Assembly: GCA_034780895.1 (NCBI GenBank) | Contig: JAUZTB010000070.1 | Coordinates: forward strand, 15,486,103 to 15,550,102 | Length of the DNA: 64,000 bases | Direction: 5' to 3' | DNA from: Rhynchobatus australiae | Taxonomy: Eukaryota | Shown here: in pieces, positions 9,501-33,500 of the stretch | Position numbering within the stretch: the first letter of the stretch is position 1 | Layout of the letters: the number at the start of each line of letters is the position of its first letter | Made by a program: the position numbers and the translations under genes | Notes under the pieces: model-generated | The model's database searches: none | Told to the model about the DNA's origin: nothing | The model's input: only the letters and a program-made list of their open reading frames with translations

Positions 9501-12500
9501 TGATCACTGACCAGCCAAACTGCTTTGGTTGTGTTGGTGGAGGGAGGAATGTCGGCCAAAACACCCGAAGGACTCCCCTGCTCTTCATCGATTAGTTGCC
9601 GTGGGATCTTTAACATCCACCTGAACAGGGAGATGGACCTTGTTGTAACGCAGTGTTGGCCAACAGAAATCACTGACTAGCCACAGCTGGGGGCTATGGT
9701 GACTGTTTTAGCCGAATGCACTAATGTTAGTAGATCCTACCTGACACACAGTCACACAACACAGATAAACATACTTCATATGTGCTCATTTATGTAATAA
9801 TTGTCACCATTTGGTATCCAAAGATGTAAACACTCATCCACCTTGCTTGTTGTTGATGATTTTAATCAAAAAATGCACAAAACAATTGAAGTTCACTGAC
9901 ACACAAAGGCATATACAGATTGCATGCCAATGGAGTCGAGTCCCTTCACTTTCCCGACCTACCCTTTCCCTCTTCCTCTACCTCTCCCAGATGCCTTGTG
10001 CTGGTGAATGTGATGTTATTTCTCGGGGAGAGGCCGTGTGGAATTACCTGGATGTCCTTGTTCAGAATGCGCCCGACCGCAGGGAATGAGCCATCTTCCT
10101 GCTGATGTTGTATAATCCATTCCTTGGCAGTGGCGAGTTCCTTCGGGTCAATGTAAATAAACCCACGGGACTGTGCAAAGGATTTCAGTACGAATGCCGT
10201 CAGCCTAGGAGAAACATTGGAGACACAGGAGGGAGACATTAGTTCTGCTCTCCATGACTCCAAACATGACACATTGGTGGAGTTTAACATTACTGAATTT
10301 TAAGTGGTGCCCTTAACATTTGATCACTAATTCATCAAGGGAAAGTGTGGATATTGGCCAATATTAGTGATATGATGGGGAGAGGGCCAGTGATGTAGGA
10401 ATTCACTTTGACCACTTTTCAAAGCCAATTTACACACATACATACACACGCACTATACATATACATAGATGCACAAATCCTCAATATACTTAATGATTGT
10501 TTGGAAGGGGATACCTGCTGTTCTACTCAATCCCAGGGAGGGCTGACATTGATGGAAGTTGAGTGGGTGAATTGGGAATGAGGGGGTAAAACCTCCCTCC
10601 TGACCAGCTCAAGGTTCAGACTGGCACCAGCAAACTCCCACCCAGTGAGAGGTTGTTGCAAATTGTCAGTGTGGCTGGAGCCAATCCGATTGGAAGCTTG
10701 GATTCAGGCCGAGATTAAACTCTCTGAAAATGAGCTGTGTGTGTTTTTTTATAAAGTGACGTCAACATACTGAGTGCTCAGAAAGGCTTATTTAGGAAAA
10801 CAGAACATTCACAACTGAACTGGCATCTCGGGTTAAATGTTAAAATTGCAAGATTAGGGCTGTGCTTTAAAACTCCCCTGAGGCCCCAAAACCTATTAAG
10901 AAAACTGCTGCTAATGACTCCTGGGCCTTTGCAGCTCACACCAGAGTGAGAGAGTTGAGAGAGTGAGAGAGTGAGAGAGTGAGAGAGTNNNNNNNNNNNN
11001 NNNNNNNNNNNNNNNNNNNNNNNNNNNNNNNNNNNNNNNNNNNNNNNNNNNNNNNNNNNNNNNNNNNNNNNNNNNNNNNNNNNNNNNNNNNNNNNNNNNN
11101 NNNNNNNNNNNNNNNNNNNNNNNNNNNNNNNNNNNNNNNNNNNNNNNNNNNNNNNNNNNNNNNNNNNNNNNNNNNNNNNNNNNNNNNNNNNNNNNNNNNN
11201 NNNNNNNNNNNNNNNNNNNNNNNNNNNNNNNNNNNNNNNNNNNNNNNNNNNNNNNNNNNNNNNNNNNNNNNNNNNNNTAAGTAACGGCCTGTCACAATCT
11301 TTCACGGTGAGGGACTGAATCGCGCCAGGCATTGTGTAAGGGGTTGCTACCTCTCTCAAATGATTTACTCTGGTATTTTACATTGACCTGGCTGTGGGGG
11401 GGCAGGAAAGGTCAGTGGCTCTGCAACAGAACTTAAAGTGTGCCTCCACAATAGCTGTTTACATCTGGTTTTGTGTGCTGTGTTGGTCAATGTTCTGATG
11501 CAGTTTATTCCATTTCAGTGACTAAAGAGAATCGCCAAATCTTTATGGAATGGATTAGGTTCCAATGATGAAGACATCGGACCCTTTCCTACAGCTCAGA
11601 GTTGAAGATCGTCACCGTATCATTGTTTGTTTAGTTCATGTCACGTTTAAACGTAGCAATTGAGCCCCGAGAGCTTAGTCACTCATTCAACAGCACCATG
11701 ACTCCTCTGTGTTTTAACTTTACCTACCTGACTCGGTTCTGTAACCAATAAAACATCTTTGGCTGAATAAAGGGAAACCTAAAAGTTACTCAGGCCCTTC
11801 CTATATCATATCCTGGGAGTTCGCTGAAGAAGCCAATTCACGTTTTGCTTAAAAACTGTCCATCTCAAAGGGCACTACATTACCCCATGTCCAAATCAGA
11901 GGCCACAATTCCCCTGTGTCCAGCTTCAAGGGCATTGTCTTCCTGTCAAGCAGCTCTGAGGTTACAGGGCTCTTTGGGATACATGTTTTAGAGCAAATAA
12001 ATAGCCCATCAACTCTGCCACTGGGACACACCCCTGCCCATTGATCTGGTTGTCAGGGGTTTTGCTGTTCAGCATTCTTCTATCCACTGCAATAACTAAA
12101 GGGAGGCCATTTATAGCCCCCATCACTATACACAAAAAGCACTGCAAATGTTTGCCCAAGGTATCTATTGAGCTTGCTGCAGGTGCTTCAAGAGTCTGTG
12201 TCTTGCTGGAGCCTCACCTGAGAAGCCAAACAACTTGTAATACCTGACAATGAATGTTGAACAACGGAGGACATAGCATCAAAGCCCAAGCTGCTTCACC
12301 TGAACCACACACACTCATAGTTAGTGTGTCAGGAGTGTGAATCCAAACCAATCCCACCGAGTCCTAGAGTTGTATAGAACAGAAGTGGGCCCTTCAGCCC
12401 ACCATGTCCATTCCAACCATTTTGTCCACCTACACTAATCCTATTTGCCTGTGGTGACACAAGAGATTCTGCAGATGCTGGAATCTGAAGCAACACACAC

Positions 12501-15500
12501 AAAATGCTGGAGGAACTAAGCAGGTCAGGCAGCATCTATGGAGGGAAATGAACAGTCAACATTTCGGGCCAAGACCCTTCATCAGTCCTGACCTGCTGAG
12601 TTCCTCCAGCATTTTGTATGTGGTGCTCCCATTTGCCCATATTAGGTCCGTATCCTTCTATGCCTTGCCTATTTAAATGCCTGTCTAAATGCCCCCTCAA
12701 ACAGAATGATTGTATCTGATTCTAATTACGGTACACCACTAGTCACAGAATTCCAATTAGAACAAGTATCCTTCCACCACTTCCCTCGACCTGCCTCCTA
12801 TCACCGTTAATTTTGGATTGAATTAGCCAGTGTGCCTTGGATTTCATGCACCTTAAACTTCTAGACCAGGCTTCCATGTGGGACCTTGTCAAACGCCTCT
12901 CAAAAGTCAATTTAGACAATGTCTACTGCCCTNNNNNNNNNNNNNNNATCAATCTGCTTAGTTACCTTCTCAGAATTAAATTAGTGATACTGGAGTTCCC
13001 TACACAAAGCCAGCTGACTACCCCTAATCAGCCCCCACCTTTCCAATGTACATAAATCCTATCCCTTAGAATTTTCTCCAATAATTTCCCAACCACTGAC
13101 ACAAGGCTCTCTGGTCTGCAACTACCTGGCTTATTCCTAACTGCCCTTCTGAAAAAAAAGGAACATTAGCTAACCTCCAGTCTTCTGGCACCTCATTGTG
13201 GCAAAGGAAGTTGGAAAGTCCTCCAACAAAATTCCAGCTATCTCCTCCCTTACTTCCCATGGAAAGCTGGGATAGATCTGGCCATGGGAATTTATCAACC
13301 CTTGTACCACAGTAAGCTTGGTGGGGTGCAATTATAATGAGTTTGATGGGGCAAAATCTGAAAAAGTAACTGGGGTAGGTTTGGTCCAGGAAGCCCACTC
13401 CTATCCTGGGGCTCACTGTATTGCCAAGGCACAGTTCCAGCCAGGGAGAGGCTCCCTGCACCCCAAGGCTCACCCCCAGCCCAGGCAATGCCCCTTGGGA
13501 CTCACTCCCACTCTGGATGGGGTGCGAGTCCCAACTTTCCTGAGCAATACCATGCCATCACATGATAAAAGAGTCATTGCTGGGAGGAAAGCAAGTTTCA
13601 GGTCTCAGGGGATGATGAGATCGTTAAAAGCCAAGTGCAGCTGTTCCCAAGGTTCACCTGTAATCCAGAGACATTTCATCATGCATGTCACACTGGCAAA
13701 AACTTGCTTTTTTTTGTTTTTTTTTTGCCCGGGCTGAATCTCTGAATGAAATCCTGTCTGGGCCGTGAGCCAAGATTTACAAATTGTTAGCTTTTCTCTC
13801 CAGCTCCTTCACACTGATCTAACCATGAAATGTCTTGGCAAACATCAGGTTTCCCTGGACATCACTACAGTTTCAATGGTGCCCATGCATGCAGGGATGG
13901 GGCTTTGACAATGAGCCACAACACTGTTTGGTGATTGTATCCTGGGATCTGCTCCAGTCAATTTGCTCTTTTATTCATGCCCTCAGGAAGAGGCGGAGTT
14001 TTGGCACAGAGCCAATGACATCATCCAAACAGGAGACATTTCAGCATTGCACCAATCACAGACCAGCCAATTATCCAAGCCGGAATTATACCCTCGAGAT
14101 ACTGACAGTGGAATACAGGCTCAGTTTCCTGGCATTCTGGAAACATTCCTGATTGAAAGGTTATGGGAATTAACAGATCAAGCTGACCGTTATAGAAGGG
14201 TTTAAGAAAAAATAAATTACCTTTCTTACTAAAGATACAAGATGATAATTAAAGTAGGATACATGAATCAGGAGTCCCTCTCCCATCTCTAGATCCAGCC
14301 CCTTTACAAATCCTTCTCCACTCATTCACTTACAGTTCTTTGCCCACTTGCATCTCTTCTCCATCCACCCTCCAAACCACAGTTTCTTCCTGTGTCTGCT
14401 CCTAATCCACACACCCAGCCCTCCCAATCCTCACCCAGCAACATATTAATACAAGTTGTGTTAACCTTGAATCTAGAACAAAGGTAAATATCCCAAGTAT
14501 TATCAAACAAAAACTGGCACAGGTTATATAATAAGATATCAGCTAGGTTACCAAAAGCTTCATCAAAGAGGTAGGTTTAGGTGCATCTTAAATGAAGAAA
14601 GACAAGTGAGAGGTTTAGGGAGGGAGTTCGAGAACTTGTATTCCATTTTCCATTTTGTTTATTTGGCTTCCCCTTAAATACATCTCTGCTGTTCACTCTC
14701 GACCACTTCTGTTAGAAGCACATTCCACATGAACACCTCTCTGAGGAAAGTTTTCCCTGAATTCCCAAATTAATTAATACATAAGTGTATGTCTTAAATT
14801 GACCACCCTTGTTCTTGTTGCTCCACAATCTTCTCATGTCCACCCGAATGAAGCTTTTTATAACTTGAAAGGCTTTGACTGGGTCATATCACAGTCCCAT
14901 CTAGAGAAAAGAGCCACAACCTTCCCTGTTTATTCTAACCTCAGCTCAGGGACCAACCGTGTGAATCATTAACCCTCTTTCCCTGCTGCTGCTACATGTC
15001 CCCGAAATATGGAGACCAGAACTGTTCATGGTGCTCAAGTCCCAACAAATGTTGGTGAGAATTTGACAGTTTCTCTACTTATGAATCCTATTCCTGTGGG
15101 AAAGTACAGCTTGATCTGGTAGTGATCTGAACCTTAGATCCTCATTCCTATGACTGATAACACATTGGACTCTGTCCCTCAGCATCCTCTCACCACCCGA
15201 CCAACACCCAAGGAAGTCTGAGTCAATTGAACAAGAGAAGAGCAATAAAGCATCAAGTCCTAATAGCAAACCAGTTGGAAATTTGAAAGTTGGGGAAAAA
15301 ACACCAACAAACAAGCCCCATTTCCTGCTCCTTAAAACCTGTTCTACTGAAGAAATCCTCACTGACTTACACAATGCTAACCATCACCATTTTTATAAGT
15401 GGATATCGGGCTGACCATGGCAAAGATTAAGGCATTGTCTGCCTCTTCATCGCTGGGAAGATTCTTGTTAGGACCTTACTGAATCATGCACTTCCCCCTT

Positions 15501-18500
15501 GCAGAGGATGTTCTCCCAAAGTTCCAGTGTGGCTTCAGATCATCACAAGGCACCCTGGTATGGTCCTTGCAGTCAGACAGATCCAGGAATAGGATCAAGA
15601 ACAACACCTGAAGCTATGTATGGCCTTCATCGGATCAAGTTTTCTTTTGTGAAGCTTTGGCCATTCAAAGGAGGTTCCGAACTACTTCTCTGATGTTAAC
15701 AGCCCAGGGCTATCAGTGAACATTAGCAAACCAGAAGTTCTCCACCAGCCTGTCTCTGGTCAATCATTAGACACAGCAAAGATCCTCAGTGACAGTGAGG
15801 AACTGAAAAATGTCCAGCACTTTACCTACCTTGTAAACCATCTCTCCCAGAGGGCAAATTTTCATTCCTGGGATCAGAGCTCTGAAACTTTTCCCAGTCA
15901 GTGTCCCCTTCCTCATTGATTTAAACAATAGGCAATGGGGAATGAAAACTGTAGGATGGGAAATCATTGGAAGCTCAGAAAGATGAGACTGGGCCAACCC
16001 AAAACCTGATGAATACAGGGAGGACAGAGCAGGAAGCCTGACCTGGTGACCTGTAACCCTGGCACTGGTTAACCTTTCCCAATCCACCATTCCCAATGAG
16101 GAAAATTAGAATTCTCCCCCAATATTCTCGTGGTCCTTGTATTCATAGAGACTGAATAAATTCACGCACCACATACTCCCAGAAGAATCCCTCTCACCGA
16201 ATGCGCTGTATGATCCATCCTCCCGTTTGTACGTCAGCTGACGTTGATATCCTATGGGAGAGAAAATGCAGAGGAGAATCTGTCCAGAATTCCATTTTCA
16301 TTTTCCATCAGTTATCACCTTAGTGGAAAAAAATTCAACCAAACAGCAGCAAGGAAGAGGTCTACCAGAATAACGCGTTGAGATTTTGGAAATGGTGGGC
16401 TGTTTGTGTTGGAACAGAGGAGGTCAACCTTACATTGCAAAGGATGAGACAGTGGATTCAATTCTGCCCTTGCTTTCACCATTGGTGAGTTCAATGTTCA
16501 GTCCAAACCCACAATGACTCTTAACTGGCCTCTAAAGTGGCTCAGCCTTAATTGCTGCAACGTATTATAGGAGCTCTCCAACACAGCTAAGGATGGACAC
16601 TCAATTCCATTAGCCACAAAACAATGAATAACAATAATGTCACCCATAAACTTCTTTTACTGATCTCAGAAGCAGCAGTATTTGCTCGTGTCCCAAGTTC
16701 CCATGCTGACTTCATCATGTACATAGCCATACAACCTACTGGGGCATAGAACAGAGAAGATAGGTCACCCCCTGACAGGGCAGTATTGGCTGACTGGACT
16801 TTCCAGTGGTCATGGGTGGAGGAGCTAGGGCCCTTTTCCAAGTCCTGGGCTTACTTTAGAGGTCACAAGGTAGTTGCTAGTGTTCGTCTATGGGGAGGCC
16901 AGTGAGGGGAGACAAGATTCTCAGATTCTCTTTGGGGTGACAAGGGTTCTGGTCCCTCTTGGACTTTAGTTAGTGTGTGCGTGTGTTGGGGGGCGGGGGC
17001 TTTGACCCCACTGTAGCAGATATGGGGTGAAATGGGCCCTTATCAGAGTCCAGGTAATTAAACACTTTGCCTGAATGGGCCATCCCAAGATGCGGAAGCA
17101 GGGACTCACCTTGCAGCAGATAGTCGGTGGCCTCACTCTCCACCTCGGTGAACAGCTGCTTGGTCTTCTGTAGGTATCTTAACACAAAGACATTCGGGGC
17201 AAAATGGATCATGTTCTGTTCTCCACAGCCGAATGGGAGACGCAAGAGGTTGTCCAGATTATTGAGGGTGGGGCCCATCACATCTCCTGATAAAAAATGT
17301 AATAATGAGGGATAGCAGATGCAGAAAGGTTATGAGGAGGAGACACACACAGATACATGCAAACCCTACCCAGCGAGAGGCAGCACCCAAGGAGAGGTGG
17401 GTCCTTGTGCCCCAGTGAGTGTCTGCACCCTGTGGAGAGCAAAGAACCCAGACCCCAGTGGGAGTCAACATCTTAGGGAGAGGGAGAATTTGTATCACAG
17501 TGAGAGCTAGTGGCTTTAAGCGAGGATTGAGCAACACAAGACACTCANNNNNNNNNNNNNNNNNNNNNNNNNNNNNNNNNNNNNNNNNNNNNNNNNNNNN
17601 NNNNNNNNNNNNNNNNNNNNNNNNNNNNNNNNNNNNNNNNNNNNNNNNNNNNNNNNNNNNNNNNNNNNNNNNNNNNNNNNNNNNNNNNNNNNNNNNNNNN
17701 NNNNNNNNNNNNNNNNNNNNNNNNNNNNNGAGGTCACCCGTAGCAATCACAAACCTTTTTCCAATGTACCTTACCCAGCCCAACCCCTCCATCCATCCAC
17801 CAGTACTTAACTGGTAAAGGTTAGTGCACTGCATGGGACTGACTGTGCTTTTACCTATCATGGAGGCCATGGCTCTCTCTGATCCAGGAACCACATTGTG
17901 AGGGACACCAAGAGTGAAGGCCTCATTGTGGTTCTCCTCCGATTCCTCTTTTCTCCAGATCTTGAACTCGCCCACTGACCCCCAGCCTGTCGAGAAGCCG
18001 ATGTATTTGATGTCTGGAACTTTGGCCACTGCCCACTCAACAATCAGCGACTCATTGGATGGTACCGCACCATGTCCCACCTAGAATCGACAGAGACAGT
18101 GTACACCTTTACTGAGACCTGTGCCAGATTGCAGCACGGCTATTAAACACAACGTGGAGGATGATGACCCAATGAGATGGGTGAAATTCCAGCTGCTGAC
18201 TAACTCCAATGTAAATACAAAGCAGAAAATACTCCAAAATTAGAAATAGAAGGAACTTCAGTCCCATGGGAGCTCCCTCTCAGGTGAAAGGTGAAGGAGC
18301 GTGCAAGGTCAGCAAGCCAACGGCACCCTGTTTTCTGTGCATACCATGGGTACTGACCCTCACCTGGACTATTCCATCCTTCCAGCGAATCCAGAAGTTT
18401 CGGAACTCGTCCCAGGACAGGATGTGAGGTGTGTTGGCACTGATCACCGGCTCACCCATCTTGCTCACTGTGATCCACGTCCTCATGTTCTGCTGCCCTC

Positions 18501-30500: not shown

Positions 30501-33500
30501 GCAGTGGTGCAATCAGGGAAAGTGGGCCCAGGAATATTCATTAATGGCCTGGCTTGGGTATGCAGGGAATCACTTCAAAGTTGGTAAATTAACCAAAAAT
30601 CGGAAATATAATGAACAATGACCAGAAACACAAGAGAATTCAGGAGAACAGCAACTGCTTGATGAATGAACAGCCACATGGGTGACTAAATTAGAAATAT
30701 GAAGCGATTTATTTTAGTAGGAAGAATGACAGACAACATAAACTAAATGTACAATTTTAAAATGGGTCAAAGAATAGAAAGAGCTGGGGTTTTGTTACTA
30801 AAGTCTTTGAAGGTGACTGTTCAGCTTGAGAAAGGTGATTAAAAATGAACCTTCTTGACCCTATGCCTTCTGAAAGGTACCTACTTGTTATGAAGTTATG
30901 CTAAACCTTTATCAAACATTGGTTAGGTTTCAGCCAAAGGATCACATTCAGTTCTGGACAACAAATGTTGGGAATGATGTTGAACCCTTGGAGAGGATGC
31001 AGAGATGATTTACCTGAACATTCTGTGGAATGTGGAGAGACCACGGAAGTTTGGATNNNNNNNNNNNNNNNNNNNNNNNNNNNNNNNNNNNNNNNNNTTA
31101 AGGGGAGATTTAACAAGGTGTTGAAAATAATGAAAGGTTTTGGCAGAGCAATTAATGAGAAATTGTTTCCACAGGCAAGAGAGTTTGTGACCAAGGAACA
31201 CAAATTTAAGGCGATCAGATAAGAGACCTGGGGGGTTGTTTTGATTACGAATGCACCATCTAAAAAAGAGCAGGGGAATTTTCAAAGGGAACTGGATAAG
31301 TACTTGACAAAGAAAAATCCTCAGAGCTCAAGGGAAAGAACAAGGGAGTGGGACAACCAGGAAAGCTCCTTCAGAGAGGCAGCACAGATTCAATGGGCTG
31401 AATAAATCCCTTGCAGGGTGAGTATTATAATAACCAAGTCTGTGTTATTTGCAGGTGTTAATCTGTAGCTGAACGTTAGCTGAAGAGACTGACTGTAGTT
31501 TCCAGATGCTCTGCAATGTTCTTTGACTCTGGCAGTGAGAAAGGGAAAATGAAACGCTGCAGGGCACAATACCTCACCTGGAGAGCTCGCTCTGGCCCTT
31601 GCAGCTGAATATGGCACTTGCTTGGTGAATACCAGCTGCTAATAGACAGGTAGCTAGGGAGATACTGGTCACCAGCCGGGGTTCCATTGATAGCCGTCAC
31701 CTTAGTCTGAGAAAGAGCAAGAATATCATTAGTAATANNNNNNNNNNNNNNNNNNNNNNNNNNNNCAAACACTGGCTGAAGCCCACACCCTTTCTCATTG
31801 ATATCCCATTAGGTGAAAGGAATGAGAGGTGGAAAGAGACATTTCCAATTGCTCTCTATTGTCATGGTCTATTGTGTCAACTCTTGAGTGAGCAACCACG
31901 TGCACGAATATCCCATCCAGCTGCATATGTCCGTGTCTTCACACAAATTCCAATGTGTTTGTACGAGCATGAATGTTAATACACATATTTCTATGTGTAC
32001 ACATTTGTTATATGTGTGTGTGCATGAGGGAGAACATGGGGGAAGTATGAATATTTGTGTGTATGCATGCTTGTGAGAATGCATGTTCATGTGTCAATAA
32101 GTGTATGTGTAAATAAATGCATGCATGTGTAAATATATATGTGAGAGCATGTGTGCATGCATAAATACATATGTAAAAGCACATGTGCATGTGTAAATCT
32201 GCATATGCAGATGTGTAAATGTGTGTGCATGCAAGCAAATGTTTGAGAGTATTAATGTATGAAGGTGCAAGTGGCAGTGTGTGTGTGTGTGTGTGTGTGC
32301 GCGCACATATGTATGAGAATAAGGCTTCTCAGTGTCCTCCCCTCCAGTTTCTCTCACCCACGTAGTATCTTTCTCTCCTCACCTCCAGCCAGACATACTG
32401 AGCAGCGGTGGGGATGGATGGAATCTCAAACTCCACCTTGCTGTCCTCAGACACCAATTCACTCGTGTAGACGTTGTCCTTTGGCGTGAGCTCAGCTTTG
32501 ATCCGCACAGTGATGCCATTTGCAGGACTTCCATCAGGATAGGTAACCTCCACCTAAAGAAACAATATAAAAAACACAGGGACTGACAATATTGGAATTT
32601 CAGTCAACACTAAAGAACCAGGGGAGAGATTCCCAGGATTTGGCTCTTATTTCTGCAGCACCTTTTATGAAGTAAACTATCCCAAAGCCCTTTGCCAAAG
32701 AGATCTTCAAATAAAGATTGACACCAAGCCCTAGAAGGAGACATTACAACAGGTGACCAAGAGCATGTTCAAAGGGCTTGGTTTAGAAGAGCATCTTAAA
32801 GGAGAGAAGTACAAGGACAGGATGATGTATCAGACCCAGGATTGCCCAGTCTTCCAGGCCCAAGATACCCTGCCAGGTTGGGGTTGCACCAGTGTTCCAG
32901 AACTCAAGATGGTGCGCCAGGTCCTGTAGAGCCTTAGGTGCCCAGTTTTCCAGGCCCTGGATGTTGCACCAGGCCTAGGATAGGGGAGAGGAGGGAGTGT
33001 GCACCGAAAGGATTGGGGGGGGGGGGTGTCACTATGAAATTCTTCATGCCTGGAATTGAACTGCTGATGGATTGGGATTATATGGTGCTGTCCAGAGATT
33101 TGGGAGGCTTGATGAGAAGGGTTCTCCATGCCCCGGAGGTTCCCCAGTATTCCAGCATTACCTTTCCCTTGTAGGGAAGGCCTGGTTTGAACTGCTTGCG
33201 AGTGTCCTTGGAATACTTGATGTCGATGAGCTGCTTGTGAACCGGGGTTGAATCGTCAAAGGTGATCTGTGTGCTACCGTCACCACTCGACACCGAGGCC
33301 CAGATGTTGAGTGAGCCTCGGAAATGTTCCGGAACATCCACAGGCATCATTTCCTTGACACAAATGGGGAAGGAGGCCGAGCCGTCGATCTGCAGGGTTG
33401 GAAGAGGCTCATTTTCAGAGGAAGAATGAGGAAGGCAATATGAACAGAATGCTACAACTCAAGAGAGCGTACCATTAGTAAATGTGTGAACTTGGCAGGA

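Follow-up and report, generated by a model that had tools for sequence, protein, structure and literature searches.

Introduction

Genes for secreted proteins that lie antisense within larger genes are already a known kind: ANGPTL3 sits in DOCK7 and ANGPTL8 in DOCK6, each nested on the opposite strand. Among peptide precursors, the closest described systems are those of motilin and ghrelin. The reported neighbours of ghrelin are SEC13, TATDN2, IRAK2 and CCDC174 (PMC4797157). Here we analyse a stretch of 64,000 nucleotides (nt) from the ray Rhynchobatus australiae (the window), in which a small candidate gene for a secreted protein can be read on the plus strand within an intron of a large gene on the minus strand. 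A Pfam search found Methyltransf_FA and TED domains in this host gene, which from this architecture (Methyltransf_FA plus TED) we take to be CPAMD8. Judged from the DNA, the chances stand about even that the candidate is a real small orphan secreted-protein gene opposite CPAMD8. It would then add a member without a family to the nested antisense genes described above.

Results

We sought to establish whether the proposed exons join into one reading frame. The candidate and its host intron comprise the following features, with all coordinates being those of the window unless a contig is named:

10205..16169, minus strand: host intron, flanked by exons 16251-16170 and 10204-10048 and falling within the part that encodes the thioester (TED) domain
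11360..11372, plus strand: predicted first coding exon, 13 nt (ATG, 4 codons plus 1 base), with a phase-1 donor, CTG/GTATTT
12057..12160, plus strand: exon A, which completes the signal-peptide-like stretch and adds a basic segment containing His and Cys, phase 1 to phase 0
13804..13848, plus strand: exon M, optional and symmetric, 15 codons, phase 0-0, with a good acceptor and an average donor
13987..14205, plus strand: exon B, acidic, 72 codons and the stop; an amphipathic helix may lie towards its end
14211..14216, plus strand: AATAAA, 5 nt past the stop

A first, sequence-only reading had placed a peptide-precursor gene antisense in an intron of CPAMD8, and a complete in-frame chain does lie inside 10205-16169 on the strand opposite to the host. 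The exon boundaries given there stood up as well: exon A ends at a phase-0 donor (AAG/GTATCT after 12160), the 45-nt exon M at 13804-13848 is open in phase 0, and exon B opens in phase 0 at 13987 and continues for 72 codons to a TAA at 14203-14205, followed by the AATAAA. Splice-site strengths were scored with approximate consensus matrices. On this scale the acceptor of exon B is strong (top 0.7% of AG sites), while those of exon M and of exon A at 12057 fall in the top 3% and top 6%; the donor of exon A lies in the top 4.5% and that of exon M is merely average. The candidate exons are located in single-copy DNA. Exon A is single copy as DNA and exon B both as DNA and as protein, no further copy of the exon B protein having been found in the ray's own genome.

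As had been remarked, exon A has no in-frame ATG: an in-frame TAG stands at 12002-12004, and at 12041-12043 the frame reads TTG. The suggestion that the ATTG at this site is a mis-sequenced ATG was abandoned. Run X2, which may be the assembly's own source, has 0 differences to the window over 11663-12408, the sole gap of run X3 in the ATTG region is an insertion, and among the differences listed X3 and X4 share no change at 12041. An assembly or sequencing error at ATTG was rejected from this comparison (runs X2, X3 and X4). The other proposal, that the start lies in an upstream exon within a gap and joins the acceptor at 12055-12056, was right about the exon and wrong about its place, since a fitting phase-1 exon exists at 11360-11372, outside the N gap. 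Ten ATG-to-donor mini-exons were found upstream, and inside the intron only 11360-11372 is phase 1 with a donor score of at least 0.5. Joined to the phase-1 acceptor at 12057, it gives a stop-free frame. On these splice phases, 11360-11372 is the likely answer to the missing start.

The joined model encodes 111 amino acids, or 126 with exon M, in keeping with the earlier expectation of about 110-130 residues and a signal-peptide-like start. A hydrophobic core lies at the start, where the best 9-residue mean hydropathy is 2.83. Under the (-3,-1) rule, cleavage after Gly20 or after residues 14-18 fits and cleavage after Lys19 violates; because the rule favours a cut after the Gly, the mature chain would not begin with Gly. 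The front 35 residues are basic (7 K/R, 1 D/E, with 4 His and 3 Cys), and the rear segment from exon B is acidic (13 D/E, 7 K/R). The description of the product as prohormone-like fared poorly. Its only basic pairs are a KK within the front peptide, at residue 31, and an RR at residue 124 that organism D, one of the relatives compared below, has lost.

We next asked how often such a chain arises by chance. The host intron contains exactly one chain that runs from an ATG through a signal stretch to a terminal exon. The same chain search was applied to 96 unselected 10-kb loci of the ray's own genome (1,595,646 strand-bases). At strict thresholds, none of the 10 terminal exons in this null set carried a chain. 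Medium thresholds gave 3 chains out of 33 terminal exons (0.24 per window), and loose thresholds 14 out of 118 (1.1-1.6 per window). The medium figure is the fair one, because the observed values guided the choice of thresholds and the splice matrices are approximate. The exon-chain structure by itself is uncommon, and it is not conclusive.

The stretch is present in six public runs from four organisms, none of them on record as RNA, and five of these runs were compared. In the flanking sequence, the divergence of organism D amounts to about 5.6% (47/842 and 56/1007). Its differences are distributed unevenly over the end of the candidate, with 0 over 13765-13851, 6 over the intronic 13852-13942 and 0 over 13943-14047, and of the two zero-difference blocks one corresponds to exon M and its acceptor, the other to the acceptor of exon B and the first 20 codons of that exon. 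Exon B as a whole carries 7 differences in D. For exons M and B together, 7 of 261 sites are changed against the 5.6% background (P 0.021); with splice signals and stop included the count is 7/310 (P 0.004). Between the two exons, the interior of the intron is at background level (5/112). Neither C nor D has a listed change in the splice sites, the stop or AATAAA, or a listed difference in exon M, and their insertions and deletions in 13765-14300 only shorten the A-run between stop and AATAAA. Across organisms A, C and D, exon B has ten distinct substitutions, of which 4 are synonymous and none creates a stop or a frameshift; the last two exons keep their frame in all three relatives. Within codons 48-61, boundaries that were picked post hoc, four of the five changes are synonymous, and the remaining one replaces I by V.

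Further upstream, D differs at 2 positions in 115 nt around the ATG exon (P 0.04; 0.14 once trimmed ends are taken into account), and 11338-11416 carries no difference among those listed in D and no insertion or deletion in its bin. For the region of exon A, 40 of 309 rows of differences were covered, and among the differences listed a change at 12071 common to C and D replaces Ser by Cys inside the hydrophobic stretch. The relatives are only 1-6% diverged, and taken together the conservation offers moderate evidence for the candidate. Separately, at 13800-13835 a second, unrelated contig of D matches 31/36 bases right where exon M starts; the ray's own genome shows no such copy, and the match may be chance.

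A number of observations weigh against a real gene. The null thresholds, as stated, were chosen around the observed values. Donors are weak at the first exon and at exon M; the donor at 11372 scores 0.6, with stronger donors at 11306 and 11410, and the ATG at 11360 stands in a poor Kozak context with no purine at -3. The synonymous share in exon B (4/10) compares with 0.25-0.30 expected (P 0.21-0.35), which corresponds to a ratio of nonsynonymous to synonymous change (dN/dS) of about 0.5-0.6. Exon divergence (7/261) and local non-exon divergence (9/270) are alike (P 0.8), and the placement test gave P 0.18. Four amino-acid changes fall within the last 7 codons of D, and bin depth (10.6 vs 10.7) indicates a 1-nt deletion in D between 11970 and 12084, which would break the frame if it lies inside 12057-12084. 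The helix moment is not unusual, being reached by 108/1000 shuffles. A phmmer search of 1.84 billion representative proteins returned no homologue and one spurious match, word-based searches with exon A and with the 96-residue frame containing exon B returned no homologue, and the compared runs, all of them contigs and none on record as RNA, contain no spliced join.

The single phmmer match was a 1513-residue repeat protein aligned through a 5-residue word, and it was rejected as spurious. In the ESM Atlas there were only matches below 0.9 or none, in metagenome contigs 0 of 566 pattern matches were confirmed, and all 4 Rfam matches were far below the gathering score. A control search with the ray motilin exon recovered 3 shark proteins and no ray protein from the protein collection searched above, so that shark annotations are present there and ray coverage is apparently thin. 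Run X1 ('RNA?') holds only short pieces, one intronic and one extending past AATAAA, with no joins, and is evidence neither way. No paper on such a gene turned up in the literature searched on CPAMD8 (nested gene, motilin, synteny, shark), with supplements, subscription journals and database annotations outside the coverage.

Unrelated open frames and splice-like sites in a slow or enhancer-bearing stretch of intron could together imitate a gene that makes no protein. We consider this possible, though on the unlikely side. It fits the chain frequencies at medium and loose thresholds, the non-significant synonymous bias, a conservation that is regional and not exon-specific, and the failure of the searches above to return either a homologue or a transcript. 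That such frames arise is shown by a short ATG frame at C107:44921359 (plus strand), in an intron of TATDN2 and on the same strand, which opens with a strong likeness to a signal peptide, carries a run loosely resembling ghrelin and is itself probably chance (motilin profile E 4.3). What a chance assembly explains less well is that none of the 10 strict terminal exons in 1.6 Mb bears such a chain, and that the zero-difference blocks of D match exon M with its acceptor and the acceptor of exon B with its first 20 codons.

A decaying gene that once coded, or a spliced antisense non-coding RNA using the donors at 11306 or 11410, is improbable. Both of these donors outscore the one at 11372, and because either would be used in its place the RNA would have no long reading frame; the unspliced frame from the ATG at 11360 ends after 8 codons. 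The intermediate dN/dS, the radical changes at the C-terminus and the unplaced 1-nt deletion in D point the same way. Against decay, however, exon B has taken its 10 substitutions in three organisms with neither a stop nor a frameshift, and exon M has none listed.

We examined in addition an origin of exon A in a long interspersed nuclear element (LINE), in which a young gene would have recruited its signal-peptide exon from an old CR1-type fragment read antisense. The exon A peptide has 105 matches in the genome at E <= 10, about ten times chance, and the 7 best non-self matches, which were inspected, are copies of one CR1-type LINE end. Their antisense frame holds a G-x-P-F-x-A-P run that resembles the ghrelin echo in exon A. 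Ghrelin-like motifs clearly arise in this genome without a hormone gene. At the DNA level, the score of exon A against 41 unselected LINE copies was exceeded by only 3/300 shuffles, for a family that had been preselected for its likeness out of very many copies. Searches with nhmmer --max and profiles of 26 and 90 unselected LINE copies, however, found nothing at exon A while older copies nearby were detected, and the exon A protein reached only 4.5 and 1.5 bits against LINE profiles. We regard the LINE origin as highly improbable.

The sequence-only reading had also likened the candidate to the motilin/ghrelin family, a link that did not hold. Pfam reported 0 families for exon A and 0 for exon B, with HMMER filters that drop weak matches, and genome searches with PF04643 and PF04644 (E <= 10) returned matches that did not include this locus, which may not have been among the scored candidates. 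Against a profile of 6 elasmobranch motilins (the ray's and five from sharks, among them Chiloscyllium XP_072419263.1 and XP_043572220.1 and Hemiscyllium XP_060701005.1), the joined protein scored -2.0 bits, with the 95th percentile of shuffles at 0.1. The global alignment score of candidate and motilin equals the shuffle mean, and BLAST gave no alignment between the candidate and the motilin-associated exon of the ray. The third residue counted from the Gly is Pro and not an acylated Ser, and cleavage probably takes this Gly away. The candidate also lacks a dibasic site behind its front peptide and the PFEIG-type motif that marks the motilin-associated exon. Elsewhere the genome has a canonical motilin gene, at C65:21259050-21262506, with a signal and hormone exon, a spacer exon and a motilin-associated exon; its product shares 73-77 of 113 residues (65-68%) with shark motilins, so that the family is conserved at ray-shark distance.

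Nor does the position correspond to that of ghrelin, the candidate lying on C70 inside CPAMD8 and TATDN2 on C107; the reported neighbours of ghrelin (PMC4797157) do not include CPAMD8. A ghrelin-like gene was found neither in the 160 kb around TATDN2 (C107:44875001-45035000, 15% N) nor genome-wide by Pfam or by an 8-codon pattern. The pattern gave 6 matches with three distinct sequences among them; 3 matches, representing each of these sequences, were inspected, and none is a gene. Because the assembly is gappy, the absence of a ghrelin-like gene is not established; a gap may hide it, or it may have moved or diverged. Zebrafish secretin shows that similarity searches can miss a hormone orthologue (PMC12714231), and for this reason a negative outcome with the profile does not settle the matter. 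In favour of a third, highly diverged family member are the layout of signal, basic front and acidic rear, a phase-0 intron after the front peptide as in this genome's motilin, short motif echoes and the unlocated ghrelin-like gene, but set against the differences above it is barely credible.

One further family was tried. A likeness to PTH/PTHrP 1-34, a lead that came from an LGKH echo in exon M, was not borne out: a profile of 5 members from the ray's own genome gave -1.7 bits, with the 95th percentile of shuffles at 1.7. Five exons of the PTH/PTHrP family stand above the Pfam cut-off in this genome, at C33:3049799-3061510 (two, 11 kb apart), C42:23202357, C65:34309420 and C80:2199209.

Two further features of the host intron were mapped:

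10681..10764, plus strand: promoter-like cluster with CCAAT at 10681, ATTGG at 10689, TATA at 10748-10755 and a full cAMP response element (CRE) at 10757-10764
12359..13278, no strand assigned: high-copy block of short and long interspersed elements (SINE/LINE) within the predicted second intron, mapped by read depth and a repeat map against unselected DNA

The CRE at 10757-10764 is the sole CRE of the window, and in 327,408 bases of unselected DNA 0 of 5 CREs have both a TATA and a CCAAT no more than 100 nt away. The TATA at 10748-10755 is readable on both strands. The cluster lies about 600 nt upstream of the ATG at 11360, with other ATGs intervening (e.g. at 10914), and might belong to the candidate gene. 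Its CCAAT/ATTGG, two-way TATA and perfect CRE could alternatively mark an intronic enhancer or an internal minus-strand promoter of CPAMD8. Over the repeat block, depth rises about 10^3- to 10^5-fold in all four runs. Elsewhere in the window, at 32388-32586 on the plus strand, a second signal-peptide exon chain was seen at loose thresholds. It ends antisense to CPAMD8 exon 32553-32383 and is probably an antisense-frame artefact.

Discussion

If the candidate is a real gene, it would be transcribed on the plus strand from a promoter of its own, possibly the CCAAT/TATA/CRE cluster at 10681-10764, and use of this cluster would make it a cAMP-responsive gene. Splicing would join three or four exons in the transcript (11360-11372, 12057-12160, optionally 13804-13848, and 13987-14205). 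Its product would enter the secretory pathway and lose a signal peptide of about 20 residues, cut after Gly20. The basic segment with His and Cys at the front may be the active part, which the acidic rear would balance or carry. Because conserved dibasic sites are missing, the protein would either be active in full length or be processed at single basic residues. An extracellular signalling precursor with these two roles for front and rear is the action we favour, though overall it is doubtful. Antimicrobial precursors of fishes offer an analogy, in that a mucosal or defence peptide would share this layout, and such a peptide would fit the candidate too. The fuller proposal, in which cartilaginous fishes have an unannotated secreted signalling peptide that belongs to a family without known member and is encoded antisense in CPAMD8 under a cAMP-responsive promoter, is decidedly doubtful.

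Annotation easily overlooks small secreted proteins whose genes lie antisense within large ones, and cartilaginous fishes retain or invent hormones that other vertebrates lack. A real gene here would supply an orphan ligand candidate with exact predicted splice junctions. If there is none, the locus illustrates that signal-peptide-like frames and ghrelin-like motifs arise in this genome by chance or from antisense frames of LINEs.

The nesting of the candidate is of the kind seen for ANGPTL3 and ANGPTL8, a small secreted-protein gene in the intron of a large host and on its opposite strand; those genes are conserved, expressed and annotated, whereas for the candidate neither homologue nor transcript was found. 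With the stingray and shark ghrelin-like peptide GRLN-LP (PMC2803784), it has in common a small secreted precursor (98 amino acids in GRLN-LP), a basic front peptide and a loose G-x-x-F echo; GRLN-LP starts GVSFHP, is octanoylated at Ser3 and is released at RR, while the candidate has Pro in place of that Ser and no such release site. Motilin differs in that a single exon holds both its ATG and its signal, dibasic sites follow the hormone and PFEIG is present, in contrast to the split signal exon and the 2-3 Cys of the candidate. In overall plan the two precursors are nevertheless alike, each with about 110-130 amino acids, an N-terminal signal peptide, a phase-0 intron after the front peptide and a helix-like stretch near the C-terminus.

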